DNA of 64,000 nucleotides from Tubiluchus corallicola. Its lineage: Eukaryota; Animalia; Priapulida. Every line of letters begins with the position of its first letter. Within the stretch, counting starts at the first letter, position 1. Made by a program: the position numbers and the translations under genes. The stretch is from assembly GCA_030141605.1 (NCBI GenBank), contig JAQGDQ010000428.1, positions 124,001 through 188,000 on the forward strand, written 5' to 3'. Below the pieces are notes generated by a model. That model did no database searches, was not told the origin of the DNA, and saw only the letters and a program-made list of their open reading frames with translations. Below are positions 777-55,493 of the stretch, piece after piece.

Positions 777-3700
777 TCACTGAAATCTCACACCATTAGG
801 ACTGGCAGAATTATTGTTTGAGGAGTTTGATCGAGACACTAGACTGTTGAGAGAGTTTGTACTTCCTGATGCATTTACGTGTGGAAGTTTGTCAAGAACC
901 GACTTTGCACATTGACCTGGAAAATATAGATTTATAAAATGGAAATGTTTGCATAGTAAAAGACTAGCTAGTGTAAGCCTAAGCTGACCAATAGCTTTCA
1001 AAAGTATTTCAGTATCTTAACAATAAAATAATGCTAATTTTAATTATATTGCAAAGTAATTTAGCAAAGAAATTGCAATCGAATCCCGATAATATGATTC
1101 AGCTTACAACAAAACTCCCAGTAGTACGATGATTTTATTATATTCCTGCAAAGGTTATAATAAAACCTATATGATCACTGATGATTACTGCAAAATGCCG
1201 CCTTATACAATGTTTTCCCAAAGTCCCGCCAGTATAATTTTAACCTAAGCAAACACTTGTAATCAGATTTTCAGTTTGATGATTATTGATTATTGACTTG
1301 TTCGGTTCTAATGGAAACAGCTCTGATGACGGATGGTTAAATAATTACCGATATGTTCACTGGTCAAAAGATGACCAGCATAGAGACTACTGATGTCAGT
1401 AAATTTCTGCTACTTCACATTAGAGTAATTTTGACTTCTAGTAAAAATGCACATAATGGATAGTACAAAGTACGCTTAATATGAAAAATATTTTGAAAAT
1501 TGTATTACCAGGATTCGACTTACTCATAATATTTAATTTTAGCATAAACTACATGATCTAGACTGTTAGTACAACACAACAACAACACTTCTGAAAAGCT
1601 TTCTTGAAAACAGGTGCAGTGTCCCTATTAAATACGACTGGACTGAAAATATATATAATGAACCGACAAATCAGAAAAATGATTTTTTAACTAAAAACCC
1701 AGATTTCTTTTAACCAATCACCACTAATCTAAAGAAATATAAAAACAATCTACTAGGACACATACAAATGCTCAACAATAAACACAATTCGTAAATAAAA
1801 ACACGTGATGCAATTATGTTACATAATTAACAACATTAAATTTCACTAATTTCTTTCAAAAAAAAAACAGCTAATTTTCACAAAACAGTCAATTGTAAAA
1901 ATGCAACTTACATCACGTCAAAACTTCCAAGCTACTGAGCAAAACAAAATTAATGAAACTATAGCAATCACACATTAATTTCTATAAATAGTAAAACTTA
2001 TAATTTAAAATAAATAACTTTTTCATTTAATGAAATATCCAGAATAACTCTTACGATTTTTCATCACAATACGTTTCATTCAAGCTTTCTCGCTTATTCA
2101 TATGCTAAATTTATTTCAGATAATTTTAGAGAAACAAAAAGGGAAATGATGTTCTTCTACGCTCTTGTCTAAATGTTTTTCTAAATTATCACGGTTATGT
2201 ACTTCAGTATTTCAATTTTGCCATTATATGATATAGTGATCCGAAGAAGAGAACAAGCATGTTCCTAAAACGCCATCAGATACAATAAAAACATTTTTAT
2301 GCGATTTTACGTAAAATGTTTTCCTAGTGTTTTACGATGACTGGTTAATTAAAAACAGTGTTTATCGAATTTGAATTTGGATAAATACTATGTAGCTAGG
2401 CATAGAAAACAATAAAATAAAAAAAACTTACTTCCATAATCGAGTCCAGAAAAAATAGAAGTGGTATCATCTTCATCTGAATCATGGCTGCCGCTGCGGA
2501 GATTCGATTTAGAGAAACCTAAATATATGAAACAAAATTATTTGCCTCCGAGTCAGTGAATTTCATAGTTTATTTGCTCAATTCATGACAGTTGTTTGCA
2601 TGAGTAAGTTGATAACTACATTTTGCTTTAATTACCTTGTTTTTTCTGATTGTGTGAAATAGATGCTATACTTTACTGCTTGATTTGTTTACTTGTAATT
2701 ATACTGTTTCGTTTTATTTTATTTGATTTCATTCATAGTAAATACGTGTCACTTGTAATTTTAATATCTCCATTGAATAATGATGGTTTGACTAGATGAC
2801 AGCTTTTGGTCTATCGCCATCCCCTTTTCATATTGTACTAATTATGATGTTAGGACATAAGAAAATAAACAAACGAATTTATAGTAAACAGAAAAGTCAA
2901 TAACAAGATTTTAGATTTCAATCAAAATGCAATATTCTCATTAAGAAGTAGGTGCTGGATTTAAGGATTTACTTGTCATATTTAATAGGATAACATTGGT
3001 TGCTTGTAAGCAACGCACTAGGAATGCAGTATCTATAAAGGGCAGCACAGAATTATTGGCAGGGCTAGGTACCGCCAAGAGAAAGCTTCCTCATTTATAG
3101 ACAGTACTTTAATTATGAGAAACAATGATCACAAACACAGTACAGTAAGTCCTTGTTTAACGAAGCTAATATGTTCCAGCAAAATGCAATGTTAAGCGAA
3201 ACATCGTTAAACGAAGCCAAGACTTCCACAGAAAGTAATGTAAAAGAATTGAGATACGTTCCAGAGGCAAAAATCAATGCTGGTTAAATTATGTAACATA
3301 AACATTTTAGGAGTTTTATTCACATTTCTACTGACTAATTTCTTTCTGCTTAATTGAAACCACCTATATATCTTACTACTACCTAGCTATATCAGATTCT
3401 CTTTCATTAGTGTTTAAGTCTAGGCAGCGGTTAAACAATAAACACTGCACAGTCAAAGCCAAGCTCTGGGCGACCTTGGGAATTTTATCTAGATACTTGT
3501 TTGGTTGCTGTAGCAACAGGTTGCATCCACAAAGTTTGCTCCCAGGTCTCACTTGATATAAACTGCTAGCATTTAGTCGGCAGTTGGAAGAGCAAAAATA
3601 TATATAATAATTACGCAGTTTACGTAATTAGTACATTTTTAGCACAGAATAATGCAATATGTGCTCTTTTAATGCATCAAATTAGGTTGATAAAAAATAA

Positions 3701-6700
3701 AAATTTGCCTTGAACAAAGTAAAAAAATGTCATTAAAGTGGAACATGTGTTGTTAAGTGAAAAAGGTGTCAAATGTTCAATGTCATTAAAAGGAAACATC
3801 GCTAAATGGGAGTCATTAAGCGAGGACATACTGTACTATTATCACAGCTATTCCTCCTTCATCAAGAAGAGTGTTTTAAAGATCATCATTAATCATTAAT
3901 CAGATCATCATTTTATTACGTCAAAAAATTTTATTCGCAAAAACTGATTTACCTCGCCTCCTAGAAGCTATTAAATGTTCATCTACTGACAGAGTTTTGC
4001 GTAGCGCATCTGCCCCTGGATTTATGCGAATTGGAAGTCCAAGCAAATGCTCAATTTGCTCCCATCTGGTTAATCTTTCCTGAAGATCATTGGTTACTTC
4101 ATACAAGGCCTGCCTACAAATAAAAAAATGGCTAAGGTTAAGAATTTAATACATGACAAGCGCATTTTTATGCAAAAATAATTATTTAAAGATTTAGTAA
4201 CTAAAAATAATAAGTTCCTGTTATGTAAAGGACAAGAAACCAGAATTTTTACACAAAGCTAAAAAAGTTTGTCTTGAAATTTTGCATCACTTACATTACA
4301 CGCTGCCTTACAAAACACGGAGCTTATATTAGCAATAATGCTGTATAAACTTGTAAATTTAAATTCCCACAATGACAATTAAGGCACATACATTTTAACA
4401 GTCAGTTCCTGAAAGTTGATTTTGTAAAAGTTGGAATAAATAATCAGAGCGCTCGTAGTCGAAACTGCACTAACTAAGCACAAGTACAAATTATTTTATC
4501 TTGTCAAGAAAAAAATTAATATGCTTTTTGGGTGAACCAGTGATGTTTTAGCAGTTTTTGGACAAACATTTTAAATTATTAAGAAGTTTCTTTTCCAGTC
4601 ACGTAAGTCTTTCAAACAAACAAGAGTAATGCTAATATATCTAACTCTGTATGGAAAGCTTTTTGGGGTATACTTCAGAATTTCTGTTTCTTTCCTTTTC
4701 AGAATTATGCAACAAATGTTTAGTGAACTAATATATAAAATTAACTGAATTATCATTATAGCCAATGATAATACTTAACTGCAGTTGTTTAAAGCAGCAT
4801 ATTAGGAATTTTGCAAAACTAAGGTGCATATCATTAATTAACCATTTTTATTAACTAGAAACTTTTTAATTAATTTTAATTAAAATGAACACTGACCAGC
4901 AGTGGACGGGGTCTTAAAACCAGCCCGAGCATCCCTAATCCTAAGCTTATGACTAACCTTAACTATATGGGTATACTCTATGATATAAAAAGCATATCTG
5001 GAAAGAACAACAACAATAGGTTGTATTTTTGAAGTTTTGGCGACTCATAGTGATCATGCAGGTCAGACCAATACAGGCCCGACAGGCAGCATTAGATCAA
5101 AACCAACCGAAGCCGGGTCAAATACCAAAAACCCAGATTGTACTACACATCTGACGAGTGAATTTATTGATGTAAAAGACAAATGCTTGTTTTTTTTAAC
5201 CATTATCGGTACTTAAATTTCGGAAAACAATCGCCTCAGCATATATTGCTGAAATAAACATAGCCAATCACCATAGTTCATAAGATGTCGTGACAAAAAA
5301 TATCACGTGTTATTTTGATATGTTATTGGCTATTTCACGTGAAATTTATTTCACATAACACCTAGTTGTAATAAAACCATTTTAATTTTCTTATGTCAAA
5401 ACCATCTAACTTTCTAAAGTCTTCTATTTTAGAACAAATTTTTCAGTATTTTTTTATCCAGCCAAGCAGCCTCAGCCCACTGGGCATCGTCCAAATGACT
5501 GTATGGCCACTTATTTGGCCAGTCCATCCCTGACACTGGCTATAACTTTAAAAACAGAGTGCAAAAATAAAACTGAATATTTCTTGAAAAAAGGAAGTAG
5601 CGAAAACATCGCCCGAAGATTTGTTACCATTAAACAACATTTATCCAATTTCCGCTGTGAAATGGTAATTAGTTGTAGCAACTTGTGCTAGCTAATGGCA
5701 AAAACTGTTTGTGCTACGAAATGACAGCTTTATTAGAATATCATTCATAATTAGCAATTTTTATTGCCTTTTTCATACCTGGCACCTCTGAATGAAATTT
5801 AATTATATTAACTGCTTCAATGCACTGCACACAATGCAAAACAAATAAAATAACTTACCTTGCATTTATAATACGCTGATCTACATCATCAACGGAGCTC
5901 ATGTGAGCTATTCTAAATGAACCCAGCAAGGACATTTTCTTTTTATTGATGCGCTCACACTGCAGAATAACGTAATTTACAGTAACATAATCAGCAATTA
6001 ATTAACAATCAAACAACGCAAAAGATAACGAAATTCAAGTGCAATCAAAAGTACTCTGTTCTTTACTAAATGCAAATCTTGTGACAAGGTACATTAGGTG
6101 GCATGTTTCATTAGATGACAGTGTTCCATCTATCGTTATTAGTTTGCGATAATAGTACCAGAATTTTTTACAATTTGTTGAAATTTGTGGATCACAAGTC
6201 AAAAATATGTATAAGGTTTTTTAGGTCAAGATGCCGGGCTATTAATACAAGCGTTAAGATGCAAATTTTATACATATATACATACAGCTATGTCGGCATT
6301 TATGTCATATATATATATGTATATATATCCAACAGCACAAAATTAAAATCTGGTCTTCCACTTTAATCATTTGTAAAAAAGAATAACTGTTTTTTCGCCT
6401 AGTAAATTCAAGTTGCGGATGCTCGTTTTTAGTGCAGAGCCCAATTTGGGAAAATCTGATATAACCTGACCCAATTCAGACGTTTACATTAATATTCCCT
6501 TCGCTGTTTCGGACATGTAGCAACATCAATAAAATGTAGCAAAGATACTTACAGCTTCTTTAGCATTCCGAAGTGTTTTTTCTGCGGTTTGATATTTCAT
6601 GCTGTAGTTGTGCCGTTCTATTTCGTGTGTTAGTTGCAGCCACATCTGAAGCTGTGGCAATGCCTGTCTCACCTACCAGCATAATAATAATTAAAATTTT

Positions 6701-9700
6701 AAAAGTAATAGTTTTTTAAATGTTTTTGAAGATAATGAAAGTTAAAGAAAGATTGTCAAAGAAAGCGCAAAAGTCAAACCTTTTCCAATTTTTCTTTTGT
6801 TTCCCCAATCTCATCTTCATGGTTTAGACTTTTCTCCGATTTTTCTTTTTCATCTTTCTCCTTGTCACACAACCTAAAGAGAAAAATTAAATATAATAAT
6901 GAAACTAGTTTAAATGTAATAGAAGATCAGCAGTTGTAGCAGGCTTTTAGACCTGGTCTTTACATACATTCGCAGTTTGTACTAACCGAGCTACACACAT
7001 TCTAGATAATTAGCTACATCTTCCATTGACTGGCAGGATTAGTTCCTAAGCTAAACACTAAACCCCTAAAATATAAATTACTGAAGTAATACAAGAACTT
7101 CATTTAAATCGCCATGCAAATATCTTCAACAAGCCCATCACGTGGTATTTAATCAACGTGAACAGAAACTAACACCCAACAAAAACAAAAACAAGCAAAC
7201 CTGTACATCAAGAGCCAGCAAACACACTTAACAATTCTTAGTTTTTTATGTAGAAAAAAACAAGAATTTGATGAAAAATTATAAGGTAAATTAAGCGAAA
7301 AAAAATCATAATCTAACATCTGACATATTGCTCGTACTTTTTTTGTAATTCGCGTAGTTTTCTTTCGGCATTTTTCAAATCGTCAAGATCCTTTGACATC
7401 TTTGCAATGTATCTGACAGATTTGTGATGACTCTGGTACCCATGGAATCCATACCAAAACCCTATCAGGGCAACCATTAAAGAAAAAGCCAGTGCGCAGA
7501 GAATTTGTAAGCTGAGTTTAACTGCAACAAAAATATGACATCGAAAATGTGAGCACAACTGTGGTAAAATGAACCAATAAAACAGTACGATAAAAATCAT
7601 AAAATTACATGTAATCATAATAATCCTTAACTATACGGAAGCTAGATTGGCAAAAACGTGCACCAATGAAAGTAATGCCATTGTTGAAGCACTAGTCAGT
7701 AGTCGTGACAAAATATGACAAGTCAGATAACATTAAATACTTTTAGTATTTTTAAAATAATAAGCTTTTTGCCAAATTTACTGTTGCTTAATTATGAATT
7801 CTGAGAATAATGACAATAATTTATACATACATTTTGGAGGACCAAACAGTACAAAATCTTGTGCTTTAATTCTGATTTTCTGCCTGTCCTTGCTACTGTT
7901 AATTCGTAGGTGGTCCTTTAAGAAGAACCCAACACTGTCTAATTTATCAGCTGCAATTCTGAAAAAAACAGATTCAGCTTTTCAGCATTTCACAAGTAAA
8001 CTTTTCGTAGACTAGTTATTAGTTAGAGTTAGTTTAACACAGTTTTTATTAAGTTTATGTGGTCGAGAGGTTACGTGCACATGCTTAACATGAATGGCTC
8101 TTGACCACCATGGGTTCACAGTGAGCACTCTGAACAGTTTGATTTGTCGTGACTATTCTGGGTGTTTAAGTCTGAGAGAGGGAGTCTAAACATCCAAGCA
8201 TAGCTGGAATGATTCAGTGGTTCACTTTAGAGGGACATCTAAGACATTGACGATGTCCACAATAATGAGGCAGGCTCAGTTCATGCACAAACATCTCGTT
8301 GAGTAGGCCCTGTCACAGAGCGCTAGATTCCGGTCTGCAAGATTCCTTTTGCAATACAATCTAACAATACAACATTACTTGCTCGAGTGCTCCTTATATA
8401 CGGTTATCAGAATGAACCTTCAGGAGAAACTAACTCGACTACATCAAGAAAATGTTTTCCCATTTAATATAAATAACTTGAGTAATCAACTGAAAATTTC
8501 AATATTTCTTTTCAGATCCTCTCAACTAAGCCACGACTAAAATGTTATATTGTTTCAAACTGCTTAAGATTATATAAAATCTACCCATTGTTTTTCATCA
8601 ATTGATTGTATGTAGTATATTATTAATTTAACATCAATATTTAATTCATTACTAACACTTAATAGCCATGCATCACATTCTGTAACATGCATTTGTTTTG
8701 CATTACAGCCTAAGGTATTATTAATCAGTCGTGTATAACTGCATACCAAAGGTTACGCTTAAATAAAATATGTTTGGACAAAAAAAGATTCCTTTGTAAT
8801 CTGCCAAAGTGTATAAAACAAGGAAACCTACCTCACAGAAAATACATTTTTTACAAGAATAAATGCATTCACAAAGAATGAATTATCATGATTTGTTTAC
8901 TTAGCCTTTTAAACAAATGCATTGCATGTGCCATATCATTAAGATGTGGGTACGTCAAGTGAATTTGTATCACCAGTAACATCAAACTCTCTTAGTATCG
9001 CAATTTTCATCTGAAATCGCTGCTTAATTTTGCTATCCAGGATAAAAAATGTAAGCTGTTACTTTGCAAGCATGTGACCATCGATGTTATTTTCTTGAAA
9101 AATGCTGGCATACTGGGGTAATTCTACGTGGTTTACTAACCAGTCAACTACTTCCACCACAGTCCATTGTCGAACTGCAAAAAAGTAATGAAGATTTAAA
9201 AGAAATAATGTCAAATTCTGACACGTTTTCCAAAAACAACTTCAACAGAAGCTCAATGCTCTTATGATAAGTATTTACATCAAACTTTAATATGTCGCTT
9301 CTATAATGTTACACTAGGCAGTGATCTAGTCACGTAAAAAATTTGACAAATAAAAATAACTTAAGTGCCATACCTGAACTATTAACCCATGTACACCAAA
9401 TGTCTTTGGCTGTGACTTTCGTTTTGTTATTCAGAAAACTTTTCTGGCGATTTCCAATATCTTCCGAAAGTTCGTCTCGGATGAACTAAACAAATTGAAT
9501 ACAATAAAACATGTTACAAAAAAATCCAAGATGAATAGTGAAAATTGACTAGAAGGAATTGAAATTAAATGCCGATGTAAACAACACCATAACCACAAAT
9601 ATAATTAATAAATATAAGCAGCTATCAGTGTGTTTCACGTTTCAGTGGTTAGAAACTTAAATGGATCACCACTGTCAGGCTCTTAAAGCATTAGAAAACA

Positions 9701-12700
9701 CTAATCTTACATGAAGCTAAAAAATGCGTCTTGAAATTTTGTAACACCTACATGTTGTTTTTTTGGACTTGTGTTAGCAGCAACACTTTAGAAAACTTGA
9801 AAATTTAAACTCCCGTGATGACTGTCAGGCACACCTAATTTAACAGTAAGTCATTTGAAACAAGCTTAGATAACATTGTGTAAAGTTCGAAAAAACAATC
9901 AGAGCATTCATTTTACACTCCACTAACTTGGTGAACCAGTGATGCTTTACTAGCAGGTGGGAACATTTTAAATTGTTAAGAATTATTTTTGCACTTATGT
10001 GTCTTTCCAACAGGTCAGTGCAATACAGAGCAATCTAACCTTGCATGGAAAGTTTTTTGAGACGTACTTTAAAATTCCATTTTACTCCCCCTTAGCTGCC
10101 TGTTTCACAGTTACGTCAAAATACTACCAGTCTGTAGCAGCTTTAAATGGGATTGTACATTGTTTTATGGCAATAAACCGGAAAAGTCAATTGTAGTCAG
10201 GCTGTCAGTGTACCATATATATATATATGTAAATGCTATATGTGTGCTTGTAAACAAAAAACATCCGTAAGTCGGCATAGTTAAAACTACAGTATGATGC
10301 TTCAAAGTAGAATACACCAACATTTTTGTCTAGTGCTAATTTTTTGTTTTATATTAAAATAAATGCTAAATATGTTGGACTTTTATATTCTACCATCAAA
10401 TTACCAAGAAAATGTCCAAAATGTAATAAAAATTTAATAATATAACCCCGAGCCCATTTTTCTGCCTAAAAACTACTACTGCTATTGCAAAAAAATTGTA
10501 TTTTAAAACTCCGATAGTAGCTCGTGGAAGCAGTCATTTTGCTTCGAGTTTTTTCTGTTGTCAAGCCTAAAACTTCGTCAGGAAGAGCCATCTACTGGGA
10601 TTCAAACATAACTTCAATGTGCTCTTATAAAGTCCATAGCAACCACACTTTCGTATGCTAAGTGTCTTGTAGAGACGCGACAAAAAACAATGGCTGACTT
10701 TAATGGTGATTTTCTCAGGTTATGTTTTTCAGTACGTAGAGTGTAACTCAACTTCAACGTGGATTGTCTCAGTTTAGAAATAACATACAGCGATGAGCTT
10801 GGTATCAAAATGATCATCATAAAATGGAGATGCAGGGTATGTGAATAACTAGAAAACGTTAATAGGCGACTTATGGACGATTTTGCTATTAAAGCACACA
10901 TATGTAAAACTATGAAGAGCAGATCTAACCTCTGTAGTTTCACTAGTGTCAACGCTGCCATCATTATCATCATCAAGATGTTTATGTAGATCAGCTAACG
11001 CATTGCAGCCTTCCCTATCTTTGGCACACTCTTCATCACACAGTGATAATGTTGGCACTGAAACACAACATCACAGAATGTTAAAATTTGTACTGAAAAC
11101 ATAAAATAAATAAGAACAATTAAAAATTGTCAAAGCAGGAAATGTTTTTTGTAATTATATATTAACATAATTACACAAGAAGATTTGCAGAGATTTCTGA
11201 TTTAAAGCACAAGAAAACACTATTATCACATAAAGCAAAAAAAATCATCTTGAAATATGTATCATATACAAGCTGTCTTATTGCACACAGAACTCGTATT
11301 AGTAGCAATGCTGTAGAAAACTTCAAAATTTAAGCTCGCGCAATAGCCATTAGATGCCGCCATTTTAACGGTAAGTTGTTTGAAACAACTTTAGATAATT
11401 CTGAGTAAAGTTTGAAAATGAAAATCACAGCATTCGTAGCTCACATGTCACTAACAAAACACAAGCATAAACTACTTTGTCTTGTCAATAAGATTAATAA
11501 TATGCTTTTTGGTGAGCCAGTGACATTTTTAGTGCACACGGGGGATGAGCCAATGCCATTTGATCTGTTGGTATAAATATTCTAAATGACTAAGAATTTT
11601 CTTTTCCAGTTACATTTAGTCTTACAAGTAAGCATTATGCATGGTATTATAACTTTGTATGGCAAGTTTTTTTTAAACAATATTTTCTTCACCTTTAAGC
11701 CATTTCTCTTCAGTTTGTAATACTAACCGAATAACAGCGATTATAAAAGTCTGTTACCTCTAGGAGGTCCAAATAATACAGCATCCATGGCTTTTAAGTT
11801 AATCTTCTTCCTATGAACAGGGCTATTTACACCCAAACCTTGCAAAAAGTTGTGCTTGTCCATGGCTAACCTGTTCAAACAACATATAAGTTAAATTTCA
11901 AAACTAAAATTCATCTTTCAAGAAAACAAAACACAAAGTATTCAAGTTAGATAGGTTAGCTCATTGTGAAATAGTTTAATGTGAGCTGACACGCATGTCA
12001 AAATTGAATTACCTGGGAAGGAACAAACCAGAGACCCTATTAGCGATAAACAGTTTTGCATACTGTGGTAACTCTACGTGGATTGCTAACCAGTCTGCAA
12101 CCTCTTCAGGACTCCAACTTCGAACTGCAACATAAATTACATTTTGTCGACAGTCAATTCATTGCCTTCAGAATTCTGAAAAATTTTACTCAAATAATTG
12201 ACAAATTGAATTTTAAATTTTGTAGCTTATAAAACTGGATGTCTGAAAAGTTTTACTCAAATAAATGATAAATTGAGTTTTAAATTTTATATCTTATAAA
12301 ATTGGATGGTAGACACATGCGTGTTTTGATTTCATCTTTTTTCTACTAAATATTGCAATTGGTTTAACTACATTTTTGCAAACTTATTTTATTTTGTAGC
12401 TATTATTAGTCATGTTACCTTGGCAATAAGTTTTTAGAGAACAGTATTTTTGCAGGCTGCCGAGATCTGAGAAGGCAGGAAGGTTTCACATAACTTCCTG
12501 TGATTTACAGGGCGATATTTTTGTAAGCACAGCAGCGGACAATAACATCTTTCGCTCTCTCTTGTTTATATTTTCACACTCACATAGCACCACAAACATT
12601 ATAATGAAACCCCAATGTGAAAACTAATTGTGCCTATTCTGCACACTGCACAGCAATACTACAGTGCTTGTTCAGAGTTCAAAAACCATCGTTACATACC

Positions 12701-15700
12701 AGGAGATTTTAACCAGATATTCCACATTTCTAACAGGGACGCTAGTTGAGTGCCATGTAAAATATTTTGCTCCCTTCGCTGCACCTTTTCTCCATTACTG
12801 ATATGTAACTCATAGTGGATAAACTGAAAAATAAATATTAATTAAATTGATATAAATATAACAACATTATCGAATGTTGAGCCTAAGCATTTTGCTTGAG
12901 AGATTGCAAGTGGAAGAACAAACTAACTTTGTAAAAGATTTGTCAAGGTCAGTCAAGAAACTCCAAGTACTCTTGGAAGAATTCCAAAAACAATTCCTCT
13001 TTGCAGGAACATAAGAATAACTGAGTGGTTAGTACACACAGAGTAAAAGTAAGTTAAGAACAAAGTGCAACTGCAGAAAAAGAGAACAATTTGTATGCTT
13101 AGCTTTGCTGGATGCCAGCCAGAGTGCAGCCAGGGTAATTACAGCAAAACGGCATTCTGTAGAGCATCGTTGGTGAGATTAGGATACTTACTGAAGCCTG
13201 GGATGGTCGAATGTTCAAAACAGAAGCAAATACCAGCGAAAATAAACAAGGGTATCAGGACAAAAATCCTGGACGTTGTATGCCTGGCTCAGACATGCAG
13301 ACATACTGTAAGTCCCAGGCTAATTTCAAACCAAGAATGTTTTTACACGAGTCAGCCAAACAAGATGTGCTAAGAAATGTAGCTTAAACACCTCAAACTT
13401 TGAAGAAGTGACCACATTCAAGAATAGACTGTTGAAAAGTTTGGATAACATCTGTGTGTTAAACTTGTTCTGTTTTATTTGTTAACTCTATATTGAGAAA
13501 ACACTCTGTAGTGTGGTATTTTAATCACATTTGATTAAAAATATATAAAATGTACATTCGTAAAGGTAAATATAAAGACAACAATGGCTAAGGCTCTGAA
13601 AATGTTATGATGGACACATGGTCATTAACAGTTATGTAAAATTATTTTATAAAATCACTTGTCTGACAGCTGGATTAATGTACTTTTTTATTTGAAATCT
13701 TATGCACAAAGGATTTTGTAATAGCTAAAGTGAAATTTCACATTGTGAAAAGCCGAATGTGTACTAAATCAGAGTATCAAAACATCAAGATAAGGATAGA
13801 CTTTTATATTGTATTTTGCACAAACAAACTGTGAATTTTACATTATTAAAGGAAAACAGGATGATTTTTCATAAGCTGCCCCATTTTGAAGTAAAAAGTA
13901 TACATTTTAAGACCTATGATAATTAGAAAGTATTTTCTGGTAATTAGTTAATGGGTTAAAAACTCAATTAATAGCAGGCGAGCCGAACTGATCAATTTTC
14001 AATAGCACAACCATTGCACGAGCATGTTGCATGAGTTTGTGAAATTTTAAGTCAAAATTTCAAAAATTCAAGTTTATGACTGTGCTTACGCATAAGCTCT
14101 CGAACGGAACGTATGCACTATGTCACAATCAAACATGTCAAACTGAGCAGCACCTGTTTTCTGTGCATTGCATTTCTGAGATGCAGGCACTAGTGTCCAT
14201 CTAACTTGCAAATGACAAAATACACAAAACAGTCTCCCAAATGTCTTTTCGTATGTGGACAGAACTAGCCTCCCAAATACGAAATTACATTTCTGTGGTA
14301 ATAATTCTTTCACGTAAGTCGCTCTTGAAAAAACAACAGTATATTCCCTTTCAAAACTTTTATAGGATAGATTTTTTGAGCTGTAATTTCAGATTGGGTT
14401 CGTGTTTCCTCTAATTAAAGAACAAATCACAAATGCTCAAATGAGAACTCGATTAGGTTCAAGTGCCTAATAACGACCTTGCAGCAATAAATAAGGAAGA
14501 ATTACAACCTCCCAAAGAGAAAGAAAATGACACTTGCAAAATACCTTCACATTCACTTTGAACAAAGTCAGTGTTTGCTTAATATCATTGTCAGTATGAG
14601 ATATTTGATTTCAGAAATTGGAAAATTCGAGTAGGCTGTACTACTTGATCCAATGAATCCACGATAACTTGCTCTACTCAGTATGCAAACAATTGGTGTA
14701 AAAATCATTCAAATTTTCTGCTTAACTTAACAAAGCAAAGCGTACATAACTAACTACTCAAATAGGCTCGGAGTTCTAAAATTGTTAATAACTGAGTTCA
14801 AACATGATAACTATGCTGGGTACAGTAAGTGACTTAGAACTTTGGTGCAACCATGAATGAGCATAATATTAGTTGTCAGTGAATTAGTTGCCATACTACC
14901 TAGACTTTGGCCTATAATAAAATCGAGAAGGTATCCTGGATGCTGAGTTATTGCAACAAGTGACACTATCCCCCTAGGCTCAAGGGGAAGTACAGTAAAC
15001 ATTGAATACTATGCCGCCAAAGGCGTTATAATTGTGTATTTTCAGCCACAGAATTTTTGCCAGTACAATTGGAACTTGTCTCATTTAAAAAAGTGCATTT
15101 GGCATTACTGGACATTGCCAAATAGAACCTATTCATCAGCGAAAGAGTAAAAGGATTAATTATGAACAATGCAGTCTTTATAAATTTGTTTTAATAACTA
15201 CAGGCAAAGACTCAAATTCTAATTTAAGTTTCTAACAGCAATTTTAACGATGAATTCCTGCGATTACTAACCATTTCAATAATTTTCTAATGATCTTATA
15301 ATAATTCCATTTTAATAAGCTATACCTAATCTATGGCACAGAACTTATATGTGGGTAACATAATGCTACCCTTTTGACTTTTAACTTCTACTTACTGTAT
15401 CTTACTACTTACCGTCTATGTGATCAATTGTGTAACACATTTACTATTCTTTGAATGCCAATAGGTGCAAGGCAAATTTTACTTGCAAAGTTGACAGTGC
15501 CTTGGGCACTGCTACAATAACAAACGACTAGAAATAAAAGATTAGAAGAAGTTGAAGGGGCCTCAGTAGAGGGACACAGGTACCCCTGGCTACCATTGCA
15601 GTAAATCTGTATTACTTTTTTTAAATTTCCAAATGACAAAAATTAGGTGTCATGTTTACTATCTGCTTGCATTAAAACATGTATTGATTTTCAAACTCAC

Positions 15701-18700
15701 CTATCTAGAAAACTCCAAACTCTGATATGCCACCCAACAAAGTCAAATATCACCTTACCAATGGGAAATCAATATTAACCTTATTACTACAGTAAACTGT
15801 GACTATTTGTTTGACACAGAAATACATGTACCAACCAAGATGAACTGCGACCCATTACTGAAAGCTCGAATATTCCTGCTGGCATTCAGTACAAAGCATC
15901 TGTATATCTTGTATCATTTTGAAGATATGGAACACTGTTTAAAAAGTAACCTTTGACTTGAAGTTGAACCGATGGAGTATATAACCAAATCATTAAAAAG
16001 AAACTTCTTAGAATACTTGAAAATTGTTAGCCTTGTAGGCTACAGTGCAATTGGCATGCTGACATACAGACATGTCAACAGATCAGCCAGATTTCCTACA
16101 GTTGCTGCTTCCAAGGGCAGCTGCGACTAAGTTGAATCAGGAATAACTGAATGGTCTTTATCCATCCATTAAGCTAGAAAATGCTACATTTACTTTTTGC
16201 ACAGAATCCTTCGACCAACCTTCAGAATCAGCGAAAAATATGTCAATATGGAGCTGCATCAGCTGCTGGCATTATTTCAAATTCAATAAATTTCCCTTAG
16301 GAAAGCTACAAAGCTGCCGAAAAACAAATTTAGAAAAGAGGAAGACATATGTCAATTCAGGGAGCAACAAACCAGTGAGTGTGGGATGTACACCAATGAT
16401 TACAGGGTTGTTTACATAATTTAAATGCTAAGAATTTTTCAGCCGTTAACCTCTACAGCATTTACATGAATCATCAGCACCTACATTATCATTTACCAAC
16501 AACAATAATTACAACAGTTGGCACAGTCATCGTCATCTTACTATAACCTACATAATGATGCTAAACAAAAAGGTGCCAATGTATTATAATCATTGTCATT
16601 ATTACTACATTAGTGGAGGTTGCTTAAAAAGTCAAGCTAAAGAAGAATAACAAAGTTTATTTGGGCAACATGGACAATAAGTGCTTAAGCCATTCAAACT
16701 ATAGTCAGATTTCACTCATTCAAAAGCAGAGTAGTTGAAAACTTGCACGCTCGTTAAGTAAACACTACAAAAACCTTCAGCTGCACCATTTTAAGTGGTC
16801 TAAGTTTTATTTTTAGCATCTAGGTTCAGAAAAATAAAGCACTAATGGAAACACACTAGAAAAGATATTTTACTATCATCAGTAATATTCCAAGGTCAAT
16901 CCAAAAGGTTGCAGTGTAAACATATCTTTACAGAAACTGTTTTTGTTTGTCAGTCTATCAGGAAACTGCATAAAATGAATTACATGTATACAAGAGAAAA
17001 TGATGAAGCCAGGATTTTGAATTGAGTAAGCTGTTAAATTAAGCAAACAAAACCCAGTTGAACTGGATTTAATAAAATTGTCTTACCCCTTCAATTTCAT
17101 CAAGATCTATATTACCATTATGGTCTTCATCTAAATGACTGTGTAGTGCGGTAATGGCCTCAAAGCCTAGAGGGTCTCTTTGACACTCCTCCGTACAGTA
17201 TGCTTCTGGTACACCTGTGCAGAGAATCAATGAGCACAATATAGAAAAAATTGCAGCAAAATCCATATCAGGGTAAGAAGTACAACAACTACGCACTTCA
17301 TCCGCATATGCACAACACTGAACTGAGGTTGTGCTAAGCTACTTAAAGGAGCACAGCTTGACAAACAAGTAAATATAAGGGTCTGGTATAATATGACTAA
17401 TCAAAGAACAAACAAATGGTGTTGACAAAAACAAAAATCTGCAATTGGGAGGTTTGTGCAGTCATATAATGATTAGTAATCATAAAGAGTGAACGACCTT
17501 TACATCATTTCAGACGTCTTTTCCGGTAATACATTTATAATGGTGGACAGTTTCTTCTTGATAATTATTACACGTTATGATTAGTCTACGTACGACGTGA
17601 CACCCAACACGTCTTATGTATTTGTCTACTAAACAAGCAAACATTTTATTTAATTACACCTAGGCACCATTTGTCTGTCTAATCTATCTTAGAAAGTTAC
17701 ATTAATCTGCAGAAATACATTGCAGTTTTGCCCGTCATCAGCAAGTCAAATCTTTAGAACAACTAGAAAAGTTAAACAAACTTTACAAGATTTACTTAAA
17801 TGTCAAGCTTCTTTGCGCACCATTTTTACAAAACAATAATACAAAGCCATCAAAACATTCATTTGAAATTAAATACAAACGGAATGTAAAACATGTTGGT
17901 AATTATGGTTACCCTTTCCCCAAAACAAACAAGTCAATATAATTTACAACCAAGGAAACTTGTTTTGCTCAAACAAAATTAATGCCAAATAAATCAATAG
18001 GTTTTATTTGCAGGTGCCTGTTTAAACTAATAAAGTATGATTAAACTAACTAACTACACATAAACTGACAAAATAAATTTAAAGATTATGTATGTATGAG
18101 ATTGTGCTGGTTTAAACATCACATAAGGTTACAACCTTCTTCCTACAGTAAATAACAGACCTCAAGATTTTGTTCTGTTCACTTGTGGAATGAGTTACTC
18201 TACTTAATAGACTTAAAATGAAGCATTAGGTCAAAAATTTTTCATTAACTACCGTTTCTGCATTATGTTTCTATATGCAGCAGATCTTAAACTGTTTGCC
18301 ACTGTTAACTTGCTACAGCCAAATGCAGTTTCATGACATTTTTACGCATTACCATTCCAATAGCAAATAGTATAGGGTAGTAAGCTGAATGTATTGCCAT
18401 TATATCTTTATAATCACTAATAATTTGTGAAAGGCAATCTTTTATATAGTTGTCAAAGTTTGTAGTAGCTTCTGCTCCATCTCTACCGTTCATCAATGAT
18501 CTACCTTGTCGTGTATTCTGTATGTTTCCTACCTTTGCTGATGAGGATGCAAATTAAAAAAAATTACCAAATTGCCAAACTGGACACTTCACATGTCACA
18601 AACTTTTCAAGTTGGATCATTTAGCTTTAAAAAAATTACCAAATTGCCAAACTGGACACTTCACATGTCACAAACTTTTCAAGTTGGATCATTTAGCTGG

Positions 18701-20844
18701 CTTTCAAATGATGTTGAAATTGATTTGTAACTTTTAAAGCAAAGACTTTAATAAAGAACATAGACTCTTTTCTAATCTTGCTGTCATGCTACTACATTAG
18801 CTACTATGCAAATGAGTGATTCACATCATTCTGATTACTCTTTTCTTAGTTTAATTCAGCAGTGACTTGTGTTCCATTGTTAGACGATGAAAGTACCCTT
18901 TAGAGCTTATTAAGTAGAATGCCAAAACGTAACACAGAGCTGATGCTTACACAGCAACATCTAATCTAAGCCTCACTTCAGCCCAACCTGTAAATGATTC
19001 CAAATTCCAAATTGTATTGTCAGTTCCAGGGGCGTATCAAGGCTTTACGACCTAGGCTGATAGTTCTATCCCACCAATCTGTTGTGAATTTACGGTTGTT
19101 TATGTAATAAGAAGATTAAACAGTTACTTGTGGTGTATTAGAATTACTATAAAGCTGTTCTGCGAAGCTATTATTAATACATGTATTTGCATAGCGCTTA
19201 TATTCAAACAGGCTATGCAACTGCTTGCTGTGTAATACCTTGCACCTGTTCGTTAAGTGGCACTTATATAAAAGCTCAGTCCAGTAAGTGCCTGTAGTGT
19301 GTTATAAAATTTGCCCTTTGCATGAATATGAAAGTATACACATTTTCCGAGGAGAATAAGAATTTTTCTAAAATGTTACGCCCCTCAAACTTTGGTGTCC
19401 TAGGCTATAGCCTAGTTAGCCTATTGGCTAATATGCACTTAGTGGGTTCTCATTGTTGATGATTTGGAATCAACTCCTTGAACCCTGAACTCTTGGCTCA
19501 CTGAAGGTCTGTTATTACATTAAGCCTCCTATATATCCTACTATTGCCAAAGATGCAGATCAGAATTTCTTACCAGAATCAACAAAAAACTCTTCATTTT
19601 TCCTACCTGCCAAAGAGTAGGCCTACAACAGTACTGATATGGCTCATATGGGCAGCTGCTTAGGCTACAGAATTAGAGTTTTTACAAAATAAATCTTATC
19701 TGTGCATTTTTTTATCAGGAAAATGTTTCTCTGTTAACTCATCAGTAGATTCATGAATGGCATCAATAAAAGAAGCCTCTCCTTTACAAAGCTAATTAGT
19801 TATGAAATGTTAGAATTCTAATTTTTCCTGGATATGTTATGCTAACACTCATTTTCAATTTCTAACAGTAGTATTTTATTAGGAACCACCACAGAACTTG
19901 CTTATGGCTTCAATAATTCAGACTAAAGGCTAGATTTAAAGGGAAACAGGATGATTTTTCAGATCTTGTCCCATATTGAAGTATGGTAAAAAATATACGA
20001 TTTGTCAAATGAAATTTAATTTTAAAATGTTTCCGCTAATTAAATATTAGCTTAGAAGCTCAATCAATGGCCAGTGAGCACATTACAACTCAACATAATT
20101 TTTAACAGTTGAAACATTTCATGAACCTGCTGCAGGTATTTGCAAGGGTATAAATTTCAATGCTCCTGTATCTGTTATAAATACAAATTTTTATGAGACT
20201 GTGTGACATATCACAACTGCATTATGTACTTTGAATCATGTACAGCACCTAATTTTGAAACACGTGTTTTCGATATGCAGGCGTTGTTATCATCTAAAAA
20301 ATTGCTAAATGCAAGCAACAGCGAAAAGTTTACAGCACGAACACAAAATCAGGCTTCCGCGGTAATAATTCTTTCACGAGTCATTCTTAAAAAGTTTATT
20401 ATTTTCCTGTGCAGCTAAGCACAGTATTTATACTACTAATAATTAGTAATTACGTACAGCCAACGAAAAGCGAGACTATGTGTCTTATGCAAAAGTTATA
20501 GTAGTTTTTAACCGAATACGTTAACTAAATACATGAGCGCAGAAACTCTACTATAGTATTAGTATTATTACTATTACTCGGTATTAACGTTACTTAAATT
20601 CAGTAGTAGTTCGACCCTTCTGTTATGCGCGTTACGTGTAATAAAGTAATATCAAAGTTACAATCATAAACAGAAAAAGAAATATACCTGATGCAACAAC
20701 TTTTTCATTGTTAGGAACAGATTTCGACAGTGGATCAAATTCCGTTATGTCACCAGCAGCCAAGCAATTTAAAAACAGCAAAACAAACAAAAATATAAAA
20801 ACAAAATTTGCGAGATAGTATTTGCGTTTCAAATGATTTGCCAT
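777..20844 (-). CDS. STIM: Stromal interaction molecule (STIM; ER Ca2+ sensor and Orai activator) with a duplicated luminal EF-SAM region, ~666 aa
   Basis: Coding exons 5'->3': 20844-20688 (signal peptide MANHLKRKYYLANFVFIFLFVLLFLNCLAAG), 17214-17087, 12823-12700, 12124-12013, 11870-11758 (EF-SAM A), 11057-10930, 9485-9374, 9174-9063, 7958-7831 (EF-SAM B), 7521-7338 (TM ILCALAFSLMVALIGFWYGF and CC1), 6873-6780, 6672-6553 (LQMWLQLTHEIE), 5959-5859 (KKKMSLLGSFRIAHMSSVDDVDQRII), 4113-3953 (LQERLTRWEQIEHLLG), 2518-2432 (acidic DSDEDD), 916-777 (stop). All junctions are GT-AG and total 2001 nt in frame. Motifs match the STIM1 EF, SAM and SOAR/CAD sequences. The last exon is the least certain. Confidence 0.95.
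3143..3833. mobile_element. Tc1/mariner-pogo (Tigger-like) MITE
   Basis: TIR CAGTAAGTCCTTGTTTAACGA versus the reverse complement of the right end, CAGTATGTCCTCGCTTAATGA; TA on both flanks (3141-3142, 3834-3835). Confidence 0.8.
4229..4696. mobile_element. Interspersed TTAA/Kolobok-like MITE family 1, copy 1
   Basis: Colinear similarity to 9687-10091 and 11206-11694 (gtcttgaaattttg, ttagca, aaatttaaa, ttttaacagt, ggtgaaccagtgatg, tatggaaag blocks). Confidence 0.65.
8058..8350 (+). mobile_element. Possible decayed tRNA-derived SINE
   Basis: A-box-like GTGGTCGAGAGGTTA followed by a weak B-box-like GGGTTCAC; more GC-rich than its flanks; no cloverleaf. Confidence 0.3.
9687..10091. mobile_element. 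Interspersed MITE family 1, copy 2
   Basis: Same blocks as copies 1 and 3; starts after TTAA. Confidence 0.65.
11206..11694. mobile_element. Interspersed MITE family 1, copy 3 (TTAA flanks)
   Basis: TTAA|AGCACAAGAAAA ... TTTTCTTCACCT|TTAA: imperfect TIR with TTAA on both sides. Lies in the intron between STIM modules A and B. Confidence 0.7.
12176..12309. repeat. Imperfect tandem duplication, ~67-bp unit x2
   Basis: ctgaaaa(a/g)ttttactcaaataa..aaattga(a/g)ttttaaatttt..cttataaaa(c/t)tggatg occurs twice. Confidence 0.85.
13850..14349. mobile_element. TTAA/Kolobok-like MITE family 2, copy 1
   Basis: Begins ttaa|aggaaaacaggatgatttttca and ends gtaataattctttcacg..tattccct; colinear with 19940-20408. 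Confidence 0.6.
18554..18698. repeat. Near-perfect tandem duplication, ~72-bp unit x2
   Basis: ttaaaaaaattaccaaattgccaaactggacacttcacatgtcacaaacttttcaagttggatcatttagct occurs twice. Confidence 0.95.
19940..20408. mobile_element. TTAA/Kolobok-like MITE family 2, copy 2
   Basis: Begins ttaa|agggaaacaggatgatttttca and contains gtaataattctttcacg near its end; colinear with 13850-14349. Confidence 0.6.
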
Positions 20845-31800: not shown

Positions 31801-32557
31801 TGAAAAGTTGAGCATTTTTCATAACAGTGTTAGACGGAGCTGTAGCTGAATGTCCCGAACGTACCTGCTGCAGGGGTGTGTGAAATAACTTGCATGCTGA
31901 TTGGGCAGTCAAAGAAAATGACTGACATTATGTTAGACATCAATTGTTAAACTAACACATCTGTTGCGGAACTGGTTGTTACTCTTTGTAGACGATAGTC
32001 CTTTAATATTTTTGCAGCTGGTGTTATACTATTATTACTGATAAGTATATATTAAAAAATAACAATATCATTTAATACTGTTTATCAATGTTAATAAGAA
32101 TCATAAATTCACGATTAAATAGAGTAAGTGGTCCCCTGCCATAGTCACAAAAGTATGAGAATTTAAATGTTTTATATTTATGTTAAGTTATGTTTATGTT
32201 CAAAATACACAAAAGAAAACTATTTGGCAACTTGAAATATTTGACTGCTTGAAAATTTCTGATGACATCAAATCTTTCGCTCGTATTTTCATTTCAGCTC
32301 TTATTTGTATATTTAATTTCCGGTGCATGCATAAATTTCATAAATGTGAAGAAATAGCGAAACCTGAATGCACGGACTTTTAGCTAAAATAACATACTGG
32401 CTAAGCTTACTGAACCATACGGGGTCATTTTCCAAAATGCATGTAAAAATGTCGATAGCTAGGTACACATGTATCGCACAATTACATAATTCATGGACTA
32501 TTTAAAATTGAGAACACAATTACACTTGCAAAAACATATATATAAACAAAGTCAAGG

Positions 32558-35500
32558 CTATGACGTGGGAAAAATCATTTCTTGGGAGCTGCTTGCTTTA
32601 TTCTGCTCAACATTTGATGCTGTATAAAGTTTCTCTTCTATGTTGAAGCCCATCAGATCTTTTCGTGTTATGACACCTTTTACAGAATTACTGTTGTCAA
32701 CCACCACAAGGTGCCGAAGCCCAAGCGTTCGAAAAATTATGTACGCTCTGTGCAGAGAGAAGTTTTCATGTACAGACATTGCTGATTGGTTCATATATGG
32801 AACCTGTAAGTATCAAATCTCAATCTAAATTCATTACAAAGCTGATGTCTAATGGGATCCAAAAGTAAATGTTGTTTTAATAATAACTGTCAATAAATCA
32901 ATTTTATATTTTAACAGCCCTTTTTATTGCACAAATTTTATTAAAAACGATATACCTACCAAATTAACAAAAAGATTTTCGTATTTTTCGTCTTCTGTGA
33001 ATCTCTGGAGAACATCAGTGAGTGAGTGTGTGTCGACTAATTTGTATTTAACAAACTGAAAATGAAACACATGTAGCTAGCAAAACATACGATCACATAA
33101 TTACTAAAGCAAAAACTGTATTAAAAATTCTCAAGGTAAATAACTTGCTCTTTATCTGACCCGCTTGTTATTTATGCACAATTTTACCGAGGACTTGGCA
33201 TAACAAGCAATAGCAACAGTAAGGGGTAAAGCCAAGCAGAGAACTCGTGCTGCTGCTGTTTATCACAAAGCACACTACTACCCTGAGCTTTTCTTCAAGC
33301 CTCTTGTTTGTAGAACTGTCTATCAGAAAACCATTTCATTATTAACTACAATCACACACTCTTGAACGAGAATGTCATTAAATACAAGGCCCATAAGACA
33401 CTACACACTTCAACTTCTAATTTTGTTTTAAAATCTTTGTCTAATCTCGGTAAGTTCTAACAAGAACCAAAAGGGTTTTTGGACAGTTTTTATTTATTTT
33501 TTGATGTATAAGCCAGCTTGGTACAAGATTCCTCGATCTCCAAATAAAGTTCAGCGAAAATTCAAAGCACCATATGGACCATATTATTAACAATGTAGCT
33601 TTATCAAAAAGGAGCAGTGCTGTGAGAGACCTTTTCAATGCAAGATACCGACTTGCAATTCGATTGGTCTCTAAGGGTCTTGAGAGCCCTGAAGATGATT
33701 TCATCAGATTCCTGAAGATGGTATCACCATCATCATCATCATATGCCCTCAAGATATAAGCACAGCAAAAAACTAGATGCTGCTATCCCATTGTGCCTTC
33801 TCAGCAGTTCTTGTGTCGTACTTCCTTTCAGATTTTCCTCTAATTAAAAAAAATTGCCTATCTGCACCTATTTTCAAACATTTTCCTTTATTTGTCGAAA
33901 AAATATGAAAAATGCAAATTGTATCTAATCCCTAAAATATTATTTCTGAACCTCTATTCACATTTTTCACACAACGAAACTTACATCTTGGTAGTCCAAA
34001 AATGTTACATCGGTTTGCTCCTGATCAGCGCCGCTTTCATCCTCAAACAAACTCTCTTGACTCAACAGCAACAATATATCCTTCCTATAACAAAACAGTA
34101 AACAGTAGAAAACATTAATAAATGCAATATAATAGTATTAGTAATGTATGTTATTTGCACTGGCAATTTATCGGGCTTAGCAGATGAGTTTTTGATTATC
34201 AGGACTTTGATATAAAAATTGTCCATCGGTAAAAATGAAATTAAATGCTAGTGATAACATAATAGTTTGCAAATTACAACACAACACAACTCAATGTGAC
34301 ATGACACAAGCTAAGATAAGACAAAGTAAGATAACAATATAAGATAAGATAAATTAACATAGTATGACATAACGTAATGTAACATAGCACAGCACAGCAT
34401 GGCAAAGCATAACATAATGCAACGTAACGTAACATAAGGTAACATAACATAACATAAGATCATCTAATGTAACATACCATAAGATAACATAACATAACAT
34501 GACGTGACGTGACATAACGTAACATAATGTAACACAACATAACACGCAGAAAACTTTACATCCTGACCTCTTTTACTGCTTTGGAATTGACACTGGGAAA
34601 GATAGTCAATGCATAATATAAAACTGGCGAAAGAGCTGTATCATAGAATTTCTAGTTAGCACGTAGGTTTCTCATTACACGCACAAATTAGTGACACAAA
34701 ACAATTGTGTATTTGTCCATTTTTAGAAACACTTGATACCTTGTTATTAAACCGAGGAAAACTTGTCGATCATGCGCATCTACATCAACTACGGGAAAAC
34801 CGCCGTGCTGAGTGTATAACAGCAGAGATGCTAAATTATGAACTTTCTCTTTTTTAAAGAATACAACAGCAGGAGCTGACATCACATCTCTTGCACAATA
34901 TAGTTCAAGATTCATTCTAAAAAAATAAAAAATACTTAACATTTTAATGGCCATGTTTCGTATCAATATATCGTTAAAGTTTACTTAATCTGTGAGAACT
35001 GAAATTAGATTGAATTTTGCAACACTTCAAGTCGTTCATTTACAGTAGGTACTAATTAACTAAAGCTCTTTAGCCTCATTTGTTTTACTGTAGGTAATAA
35101 AACTGCTATCAAATGAAACAAATATTATGCTGAACTGTTACAGCGACCTCGAAATAAAGTATAAACAGCTTTTGTATCGATTCGTTTGAGCTAGTTTCTC
35201 AACTTCAGTTCAGTCTGTCATGTGCAGCTGCTATTGCTCACAATGAACTTATGAAAGGCGCACTATACGTTAAGTCAGCTCACTTATCTATGCTACAAAT
35301 TAATGGTACAAATACACTGGAGATGATACAGTATCTACATCATTGGCTCATGCTTTCGGGGTTCTCAGAGAAATTAGCTGCTTTTGTCTTTGTGCACATG
35401 AGCAGGATCAAATCAGTGGTAGTGTTTCTCAAAGTTGTGTAGCATTCTCCACTTTGTTTCTACTACTGTTTGTCAATATCAGTCAAACTCTTCACACGCT

Positions 35501-43377: not shown

Positions 43378-43489
43378 TATCTCTGCTCAAAAAACATTGT
43401 CAATAAGTATTACATTCTTGCAGAGTAATGAGTTTATTAGTCAAACCTCCAGAAAAATTTTTACACATAAACCTGCAACAACAAACACA

Positions 43490-43800
43490 TGACTCACACA
43501 ACACAACCCACACTGCCCATACGACATCACCTACACCTACCACCCATACCACATCACACACCTGCCACTCTATACCAATACCAATCACACCACCCACAGT
43601 ACACTACAACAAACTATAACCCACACTGCCCATACCACATCACCTACACCCCACCACTCATACCACATCACACACCTGCCACTCTATACCAATACCAATC
43701 ACACCACCCACAGTACACTACAACAAACTACCTACACTACACCACAGCACAGAGTTACACCCATCATTTCACACCACAACTACCACACCATCCATACCAT
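43490..43800. repeat. CA-rich low-complexity region containing a ~114-bp tandem duplication
   Basis: cacactgcccatac..cataccacatcacacacctgccactctataccaataccaatcacaccacccacagtacactacaacaaacta occurs twice. Confidence 0.85.
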
Positions 43801-43854
43801 GTGCTGCCATTGTTGCCAATGGTGATGATGATTGCAACAAATATGACGGTGAAG

Positions 43855-44245
43855 CAGCAGTGGCAACAACAACGACGATGACAACAACAACAGTAGCAGC
43901 ACCTTCAACAACAAAAACAACAACAACAACAATAACAGCAGAAGTAGCTGCAGATACAGCAGCAACAGCACCAACATCGATGACAATGACAATGATGGTG
44001 GTAATGGCAGGAACAGCAGTAGCAACAACGACAATAACAACAATGGCAACAACAGGAACAACAACAACAACAACAACAACAATAACAGCAGAAGTAACAG
44101 CAGATACAGCAGCAGCAGCACCAACATCGATGACAATGACAATGATGGTGGTAATGGCAGCAACAGCAGTAGCAACAACGACAATAACAACAATGGCAAC
44201 AACAGGAACAACAGCAGAAACAATAACAATCTACAATAACAAAAT
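43855..44245. repeat. (CAA/CAG)n-rich trinucleotide region with an internal duplication of ~150 bp
   Basis: acaacaataacagcagaagta..gcagatacagcagc..ccaacatcgatgacaatgacaatgatggtggtaatggcag.. occurs twice; gives poly-T and poly-L ORFs. Confidence 0.9.
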
Positions 44246-55307: not shown

Positions 55308-55493
55308 CTGCAAAAGTACAAAGATAATCAAAATCAGTCTTTTTTACAGTCTGACGTACTTCAAGTTTTAAACTATCCGAAGGAGTCTGATACCTATGTA
55401 TTATTTTACAAAATTACTAAACTTTGGATGTGTTACTACGATAGCTGGGATAATAGTGCGTAATTAAACGACAATTTTGCGTATAACATTTTG

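Follow-up and report, generated by a model that had tools for sequence, protein, structure and literature searches.

What can a STIM protein do with two luminal calcium sensors, when the activation models that we considered assume one sensor per chain? The question is raised by a gene in a stretch of 64,000 nucleotides from the priapulid Tubiluchus corallicola (GenBank assembly GCA_030141605.1, contig JAQGDQ010000428.1, positions 124,001 to 188,000 of the forward strand), which as a whole is referred to here as the window. According to the accessible text of PMC6208404, calcium loss makes the EF-SAM unit of STIM1 rearrange or dimerise, after which the transmembrane helices and CC1 associate and SOAR is released, and acidic residues at the surface tune the threshold; in what way calcium loss in EF-SAM leads to the pairing of the membrane helices (i.e. 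unfolding, dimerisation or extra surface sites) is, in the same text, still a matter of dispute. A natural chain with two sensors, which appears to have been selected and to have evolved at least twice, tests such models: a distal EF-SAM matters if self-association drives activation, and is irrelevant if membrane-adjacent geometry alone counts. In the window, the four EF-SAM exons of STIM were duplicated in tandem long ago and both copies have been retained. The gene belongs to the known STIM family as a new architecture within it, and not as a new kind of system.

The gene consists of 16 exons on the minus strand, from 20844 to 777 (Table 1), which together encode a conceptual product of 666 residues with zero internal stops, and all 15 introns are of the GT-AG type. 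Between a single signal-peptide exon and a single transmembrane exon lie two sets of four EF-SAM exons, namely the outer module A and the inner module B, that have their incoming intron phases in common (1, 0, 1, 2). The preliminary description of this DNA, made from the letters alone, had already placed all eight module exons at the positions and with the sizes that we recover (128, 124, 112 and 113 nucleotides versus 128, 112, 112 and 128), and its claims of identical phases and of a stop-free model of 666 residues were borne out when the exons were joined. Its statement that the modules end in LFGPP is correct for both modules of the window, whereas module A of the two close relatives presented below ends in LFGAP and LFGSP. 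Hydropathy gives two peaks only, at residues 7-30 and 372-398, as expected for a signal peptide and a single transmembrane helix. A Pfam scan, made on 12 single exons, recognised EF-hand_STIM1 in A1, B1 and weakly in B2, SAM in A3, A4 and B3, and SOAR in three cytosolic exons (C2-C4); scanned alone, A2 had no Pfam match of any kind, and B4 and the transmembrane exon had no relevant one. A third EF-SAM module is absent from the window (tblastn).

At the protein level 68 of 154 aligned residues of modules A and B are identical in a pairwise alignment (41% of 158 in the multiple alignment), and the alignment score of 316.5 compares with a mean of -31.8 and a maximum of 8.5 over 300 shuffles. In the case of the nucleotide sequence, blastn between the two regions gave a sole match with E <0.01, i.e. 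73 nucleotides of exon A3/B3 at 77%, and over 155 paired codons the proportion of synonymous differences (pS) amounts to 0.76, which is saturated, and that of nonsynonymous differences (pN) to 0.38. Since the copies share no intron similarity and the synonymous sites are saturated, the duplication is old and not an assembly echo, just as the preliminary description had held. A recent duplication mediated by repeats was considered and rejected: the repeat copies within the introns are 69-73% alike and are found outside the modules as well, and the flanking introns are otherwise unrelated.

The doubled architecture is also found in spliced form. A profile of exons A1 and B1 recovered one protein among 57 candidates, P0001, whose cluster has two members (P0001 and P0002). 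P0001 (405 residues, on a Logan contig of 1471 nucleotides) is identical to the window model at 352 of 386 positions (91%) and P0002 (632 residues, on a Logan contig of 2091 nucleotides) at 582 of 618 (94%); between themselves they agree at 307 of 333. Both cross A1-A4 and B1-B4 into the transmembrane exon without introns, and P0002 reaches the same stop as the window. Because they are intron-free, the contigs most probably derive from RNA, and because they read both modules in one frame, the splice from A4 to B1 exists; transcription of both modules as one frame is thus supported in close relatives and may be presumed for the window gene itself. As the preliminary description had anticipated, Pfam recognises two EF-hand_STIM1 domains (PF25578) and two SAM stretches in each of the two proteins, and SOAR (PF16533) in the full-length P0002 at E 1e-35. 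An absence of transcripts with module A exons, which that description had named as evidence against itself, is not what the contigs suggest, as both contigs of the lineage carry module A. The last 20 residues of P0001 follow a frame shift within the transmembrane exon, near a T run, that brings an early end and is either a contig error or a real indel. Elsewhere in the gene, the CC1/SOAR exons are joined by splicing in one contig of run X2, which differs at 14 of 193 letters; of the seven differences listed, six would be silent if each occurred alone. A word search with the SOAR exons yielded nothing from 26 candidates, a scan of metagenome contigs yielded 87 pattern matches and no relative, and the ESM Atlas yielded generic STIM clusters only.

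Equal constraint on both modules is supported by a protein-level proxy, not the ratio of nonsynonymous to synonymous substitution rates, on three close sequences. Compared with P0001, 14 of 52 residues have changed in the signal exon, 9 of 159 in module A and 9 of 160 in module B (Fisher test, A versus signal exon p = 9e-5, A versus B p = 1); compared with P0002, the changes number 9 of 159 in module A and 11 of 160 in module B. The canonical calcium loop (ligands at positions 1, 3, 5 and 12, Gly at 6) is present in both modules of the window, as in 142 of 142 single modules. Each module is, moreover, predicted to fold as an EF-SAM unit (hidden EF-hand plus SAM). In an AlphaFold2 model built from an alignment of 11 rows, the predicted local distance difference test (pLDDT) is mostly 75-95 over both modules and the predicted template-modelling score (pTM) is 0.44, an earlier model of P0002 from 10 rows having given 66.7 and 0.32. 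The top three Foldseek matches of the model are the STIM EF-SAM structures 6pw7, 2l5y and 2k60 (target TM-score 0.87-0.88 for 6pw7), and the cytosolic part matches the SOAR structure 3teq. In addition to the usual pair, module B carries two further cysteines, one in the entering helix of the canonical EF-hand and one in the exit helix of the hidden one, in all three close sequences; it is conceivable that they form a luminal disulfide.

Is the doubling particular to this lineage? A HMMER search with P0001 over 1.84 billion representatives gave 414 matches. When a module profile was applied to the best 150 of these, five turned out to have two full modules (P0001, P0003, P0004, P0108 and P0149), P0069 one module and part of another, and 144 one module. 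A follow-up search with P0003, P0004 and P0164 yielded 22 proteins, seven of which have two full modules. The doubles with a name are those of Hydractinia symbiolongicarpus (XP_057314236.1, 802 residues) and Hydra vulgaris (LOC100198735, XP_065667544.1, 910 residues); together with five others, which are probably hydrozoan as well, they make up a Hydra group of seven that forms one cytosolic clade (support 100/99) nested among unnamed single-module proteins. Between its two full modules the Hydra protein (P0174) has at residues 170-288 a partial third one (hidden EF-hand and SAM, no canonical loop), i.e. three luminal SAMs in all. The claim of the preliminary description that no STIM with such an architecture was known is therefore not supported: RefSeq lists proteins of Hydractinia and Hydra that have two EF-SAM modules or more, and it is seemingly because of their automatic names ('STIM1-like' or 'uncharacterized') that they were overlooked in laboratory animals for which transgenics exist. 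No paper on a double EF-SAM STIM was found in the literature on STIM evolution and architecture, where coverage of subscription journals is thin, and none is mentioned in the accessible parts of PMC11506743, PMC1904252 and bioRxiv 10.1101/716472; 'undescribed' is thus a provisional term. Five further candidates were rejected as doubles, P0111 and P0124 having two hidden Markov model stretches, yet a single module with an insertion, and P0118, P0019 and P0136 two phmmer stretches in one module.

In the module trees the grouping follows lineage and not A/B position. The approximately unbiased (AU) test rejects module trees in which all 16 double modules form a single clade (p = 0.021) or all 8 A modules do (p = 0.0008), and likewise rejects a union of the window and Hydra groups for the cytosolic parts (p = 6e-5), p values that are somewhat weakened by the fact that the groups were named after the first tree had been seen. 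These rejections point to separate origins of the doubling in the window lineage and in the Hydra group, and hence to its retention on two or more occasions. The sequences indicate no fewer than two independent duplications, possibly three. The divergent doubles (P0108 and P0149/P0165/P0167/P0168) have both calcium loops canonical and have lost conserved SAM and hidden EF-hand residues. A third separate origin is not claimed for P0108 and P0168, since on their long branches a join to the Hydra group (p = 0.088) or to the window (p = 0.072) is left standing. A module tree of 71 rows served as a quick tree only, and the conclusions are taken from a careful tree of 33 rows, from which 38 of the 71 rows, P0108 and P0168 included, are absent.

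The nearest named relative of the window protein is the STIM of Priapulus caudatus (XP_014667541.1, P0006, 501 residues), which has one EF-SAM in its RefSeq model. A cytosolic tree of 38 rows (transmembrane helix to SOAR) places the window protein together with P0002 as its sister, with support 100/99; from this one gene, and in a tree without a named kinorhynch or loriciferan, a priapulid or something close to one is the likely host. The module tree of 33 rows unites A with B (98/88) and puts Priapulus outside the pair (91/86). As topologies with Priapulus beside A or beside B are also compatible with the AU test (p 0.25 and 0.28), the duplication may precede or follow the split from Priapulus.

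How might a chain of this kind work? Two-threshold or cooperative store sensing, or a pairing of the EF-SAMs within the chain, were the possibilities raised by the preliminary description. To one reading, drawn from comparison of the sequences, we give about an even chance: module B would transmit, and module A would add a calcium-dependent self-association that shifts or steepens the threshold for opening Orai. Since it is B alone that is joined to the membrane helix, B would serve as the ordinary calcium sensor and draw the transmembrane helices together; A would be an additional sensor, and its loss of calcium would bring further self-association in trans. The linker between them is short (in the window 28 residues separate the end of SAM from the calcium loop that follows, and roughly half of these belong to the entering helix), so that a resting dimer would hold four sensors, to which depleted A modules could add avidity in trans. 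Module A would probably release calcium first, because acidic residues are scarcer in it and its hidden EF-hand shows unusual substitutions. The count of Asp plus Glu is 21 in module A and 26 in module B (single-module median 25, quartiles 23-27), and A carries, besides Ile or Leu at F108, the changes I115A, S88I and E94Y (human numbering via P0114), which are absent from all 142 single modules; B carries P165A, present in 1 of 142 single modules. In human STIM1 the changes F108I/L, H109N/R and I115F cause activation and P165Q hinders the formation of dimers, according to the accessible part of PMC11506743, and neutralised surface acids move the threshold of STIM1 towards activation (PMC6208404, accessible text).

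Several observations weigh against this reading. Both window modules depart from the consensus at 8 of 45 conserved columns, H109 being lost in both, and each retains no more than 4 of the 11 acids at the surface of human STIM1; this weakens the proposal that A unloads first. Leu at 108 occurs often among single modules (35 of 142), and at 108-110 the alignment of module A is uncertain by one residue. In the Hydra group the Asp plus Glu counts are mixed, B being higher in four proteins, equal in one and lower in two (n=7). The five-model prediction gives no confident arrangement of A and B (pTM 0.44, shallow alignment) and neither shows nor excludes contact between them. Finally, no window joint from A4 to B1, or any other joint of module exons, is among the joints listed for runs X1 and X2 at 85% likeness, where the missing cover over the modules counts as no evidence; single-module isoforms may exist, given that all five four-exon skips tested keep the reading frame and that no window read from A4 to B1 was seen.

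The attachment of the membrane helix to module B only, and the lack of a confident A-B arrangement (pTM 0.44), are also what one should expect if module A were a folded passenger, i.e. a calcium buffer, a spacer or a docking site for a luminal partner, and B alone set the threshold. In the Hydra group, moreover, A strays from the consensus further than B in 7 of 7 proteins (which are kin, not independent cases), an asymmetry that suits our main reading too, and Hydra tolerates a truncated third module without canonical EF-hand. We nevertheless consider a passenger rather unlikely, as A is as constrained as B in the three close sequences, the canonical loop is kept in both modules of all 12 double proteins examined, and a calcium-free EF-SAM is expected to self-associate (accessible text of PMC6208404), so that one tethered in the chain would hardly be inert.

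Distinctly unlikely, in our estimate, is a pairing of the modules A and B of one chain upon calcium loss (or their packing at rest), by which trans dimerisation would be absorbed and activation damped or delayed. The five models give no fixed A-B arrangement (pTM 0.44, a weak objection in view of the shallow alignment) and no compensatory pair has been demonstrated, whereas the spacer from A to B is short and similar in both origins (22-29 residues in 11 of the 12 double proteins) and both window modules have left the consensus where single modules keep it, as co-adaptation would give. The spliced contigs bear on yet another possibility, namely that the A and B exon sets are alternative cassettes, that most mRNAs contain one module or an A/B chimera, yielding STIM1-like and STIM2-like sensors from one gene, and that the double form is minor. 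The frame-keeping skips would allow this, and the modules differ as much as distant orthologues do (41%); yet both modules are present in 2 of 2 contigs of the window lineage, 4 of 5 members of the Hydractinia cluster have the full 802 residues (one being seen on 18 Logan contigs) and all 12 members of the P0003 cluster are doubles, which renders it improbable, even though contigs drop rare variants and minor skipped forms could occur. That the doubling is an assembly artefact, two adjacent genes or a set of decaying pseudo-exons has next to no probability: run X1 contigs do span the stretch in short pieces only, but the copies lack intron similarity and are saturated at synonymous sites, one signal exon and one transmembrane exon enclose both exon sets, the contigs of two relatives cross both modules in one frame, and module A is as constrained as module B.

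A wider idea is possible though doubtful: multi-sensor STIMs may have been built repeatedly among animals (two or three times) such that the outer EF-SAM unloads first and primes or cross-links dimers and the inner one then fires, giving from one gene a two-step store response that is first STIM2-like and then STIM1-like. The store-operated calcium entry of Hydra and Hydractinia would then work in this manner. The independent recurrence in Hydra and Hydractinia makes the doubling more interesting, yet less singular.

The features of the gene and of the remainder of the window are collected in Table 1. The start of P0002 falls in the stretch that matches the putative leader upstream of A1 and is one residue longer, with the frame maintained; this leader is possibly a short alternative signal peptide, or else retained intron. 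Upstream of the signal-peptide exon there are ATGs at 20857 and 20871 on the minus strand, one opening a frame of 5 codons and one an out-of-frame open reading frame (ORF) of 35 codons that overlaps the signal peptide, and these could dampen translation of STIM.

Table 1. Exons of the STIM gene and other features of the window (positions within the 64,000 nucleotides)
Feature	Position	Strand	Evidence or remark
Signal-peptide exon, coding part, residues 1-52	20688..20844	-	hydrophobic peak at residues 7-30; start matches spliced relative P0001
Putative alternative leader upstream of A1 (in-frame ATG and 17 codons, mostly hydrophobic)	17215..17266	-	presumed
Module A exon 1 (A1, 128 nt): Cys pair, canonical EF-hand, loop DEDHNGNIDLDE	17087..17214	-	Pfam EF-hand_STIM1 E 5e-10
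Module A exon 2 (A2, 124 nt): hidden EF-hand, most diverged exon	12700..12823	-	in both spliced relatives; no Pfam match alone
Module A exon 3 (A3, 112 nt): first half of SAM	12013..12124	-	Pfam SAM_2 E 4e-7
Module A exon 4 (A4, 113 nt): second half of SAM, terminal LFGPP	11758..11870	-	SAM_2 E 0.002, under Pfam cut-off
Phase-1 intron between modules A and B, 700 nt, with dispersed-repeat copies	11058..11757	-	GT-AG; junction crossed in P0001 and P0002
Module B exon 1 (B1, 128 nt): linker, Cys pair, canonical EF-hand, loop DDDNDGSVDTSE	10930..11057	-	EF-hand_STIM1 E 1e-9
Module B exon 2 (B2, 112 nt): hidden EF-hand	9374..9485	-	EF-hand_STIM1 E 2e-4, under cut-off
Module B exon 3 (B3, 112 nt): first half of SAM	9063..9174	-	matches STIM1 EF-SAM 2k60, E 3e-7; Pfam SAM
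Module B exon 4 (B4, 128 nt): second half of SAM, terminal LFGPP	7831..7958	-	within second SAM stretch of relatives
Transmembrane exon: single transmembrane helix, start of CC1	7338..7521	-	hydropathy peak at residues 372-398; also in P0002
CC1 exon	6780..6873	-	joined to next exon in spliced run X2 contig
SOAR/CAD exon 1	6553..6672	-	Pfam SOAR E 2e-8
SOAR/CAD exon 2	5859..5959	-	Pfam SOAR E 4e-10
SOAR/CAD exon 3 and helix after it	3953..4113	-	Pfam SOAR E 4e-6
Tail exon, acidic, serine-rich	2432..2518	-	1 of 29 residues changed versus P0002
Last coding exon up to stop, without polybasic tail	777..916	-	2 Lys+Arg among last 20 residues
Dispersed repeat copies in introns, and two short tandem duplications	4223-4682, 9683-10076, 11200-11672, 13846-13983 + 19936-20079, 18554-18698, 12175-12308		tandem duplications of 73 and 67 nt
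High-copy elements	10238-10904, 13573-14906, 18909-19575		very high run X1 contig depth
Multi-exon CLC-type chloride channel gene	~32500-45000	-	Voltage_CLC and CBS matches
Multi-exon TLDc-domain gene	~51600-55700	-	
Long simple-sequence tracts (tri-/dinucleotide)	43400-44400 and 63500-64000		yield spurious long ORFs

Compared with known systems, the window protein has what makes a STIM: a signal peptide and single transmembrane helix, a canonical EF-hand, EF-SAM (as predicted fold), CC1 and SOAR/CAD. The fold and order of its parts (signal peptide, Cys pair, canonical and hidden EF-hand, SAM, transmembrane helix, CC1, SOAR) are those of human STIM1 and STIM2 and of C. elegans STIM-1 (2k60, 2l5y, 6pw7; SOAR 3teq). 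The human and C. elegans structures, and characterised STIMs in general, have one EF-SAM per chain, a trait that lies outside the Pfam definition and that the window protein does not share. Vertebrate-type STIMs furthermore differ from it by a longer CC1 and a polybasic tail: the CC1 of the window protein falls about 40 residues short of that of most STIMs in the comparison, and Lys plus Arg number 2 in its last 20 residues, as in Priapulus, and 7-11 in 9 of 12 others. The polybasic tail is also missing in worms and insects (accessible part of PMC1904252). With Priapulus the window protein has in common the Cys pair, the short CC1 (between the end of SAM and SOAR lie 103 residues in Priapulus versus 100) and the absence of a basic tail; owing to the latter two (window 7521-6553 and 916-777), the reach across the gap between endoplasmic reticulum and plasma membrane may differ. 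An extra module as compensation for the lost tail was rejected, as Priapulus is tail-less with one module and the Hydra group is tailed with two.

The divergent doubles P0108 and P0149/P0168 resemble the window protein in that two EF-SAM-like modules are followed by one transmembrane helix and a SOAR-like region, but show 18-24 departures at the 45 conserved columns. Hydractinia and Hydra share with the window tandem luminal EF-SAMs, canonical loops in two full modules, one transmembrane helix and SOAR, and in Hydractinia also a similar spacer. Unlike the window protein they are of separate origin, lack the usual Cys pair (as do the modules of the Hydra group at large) and both have a basic tail; in addition, Hydractinia has a full-length CC1 and modules that are 35-40% identical to those of the window, and Hydra inserts its partial third module between the two full ones.

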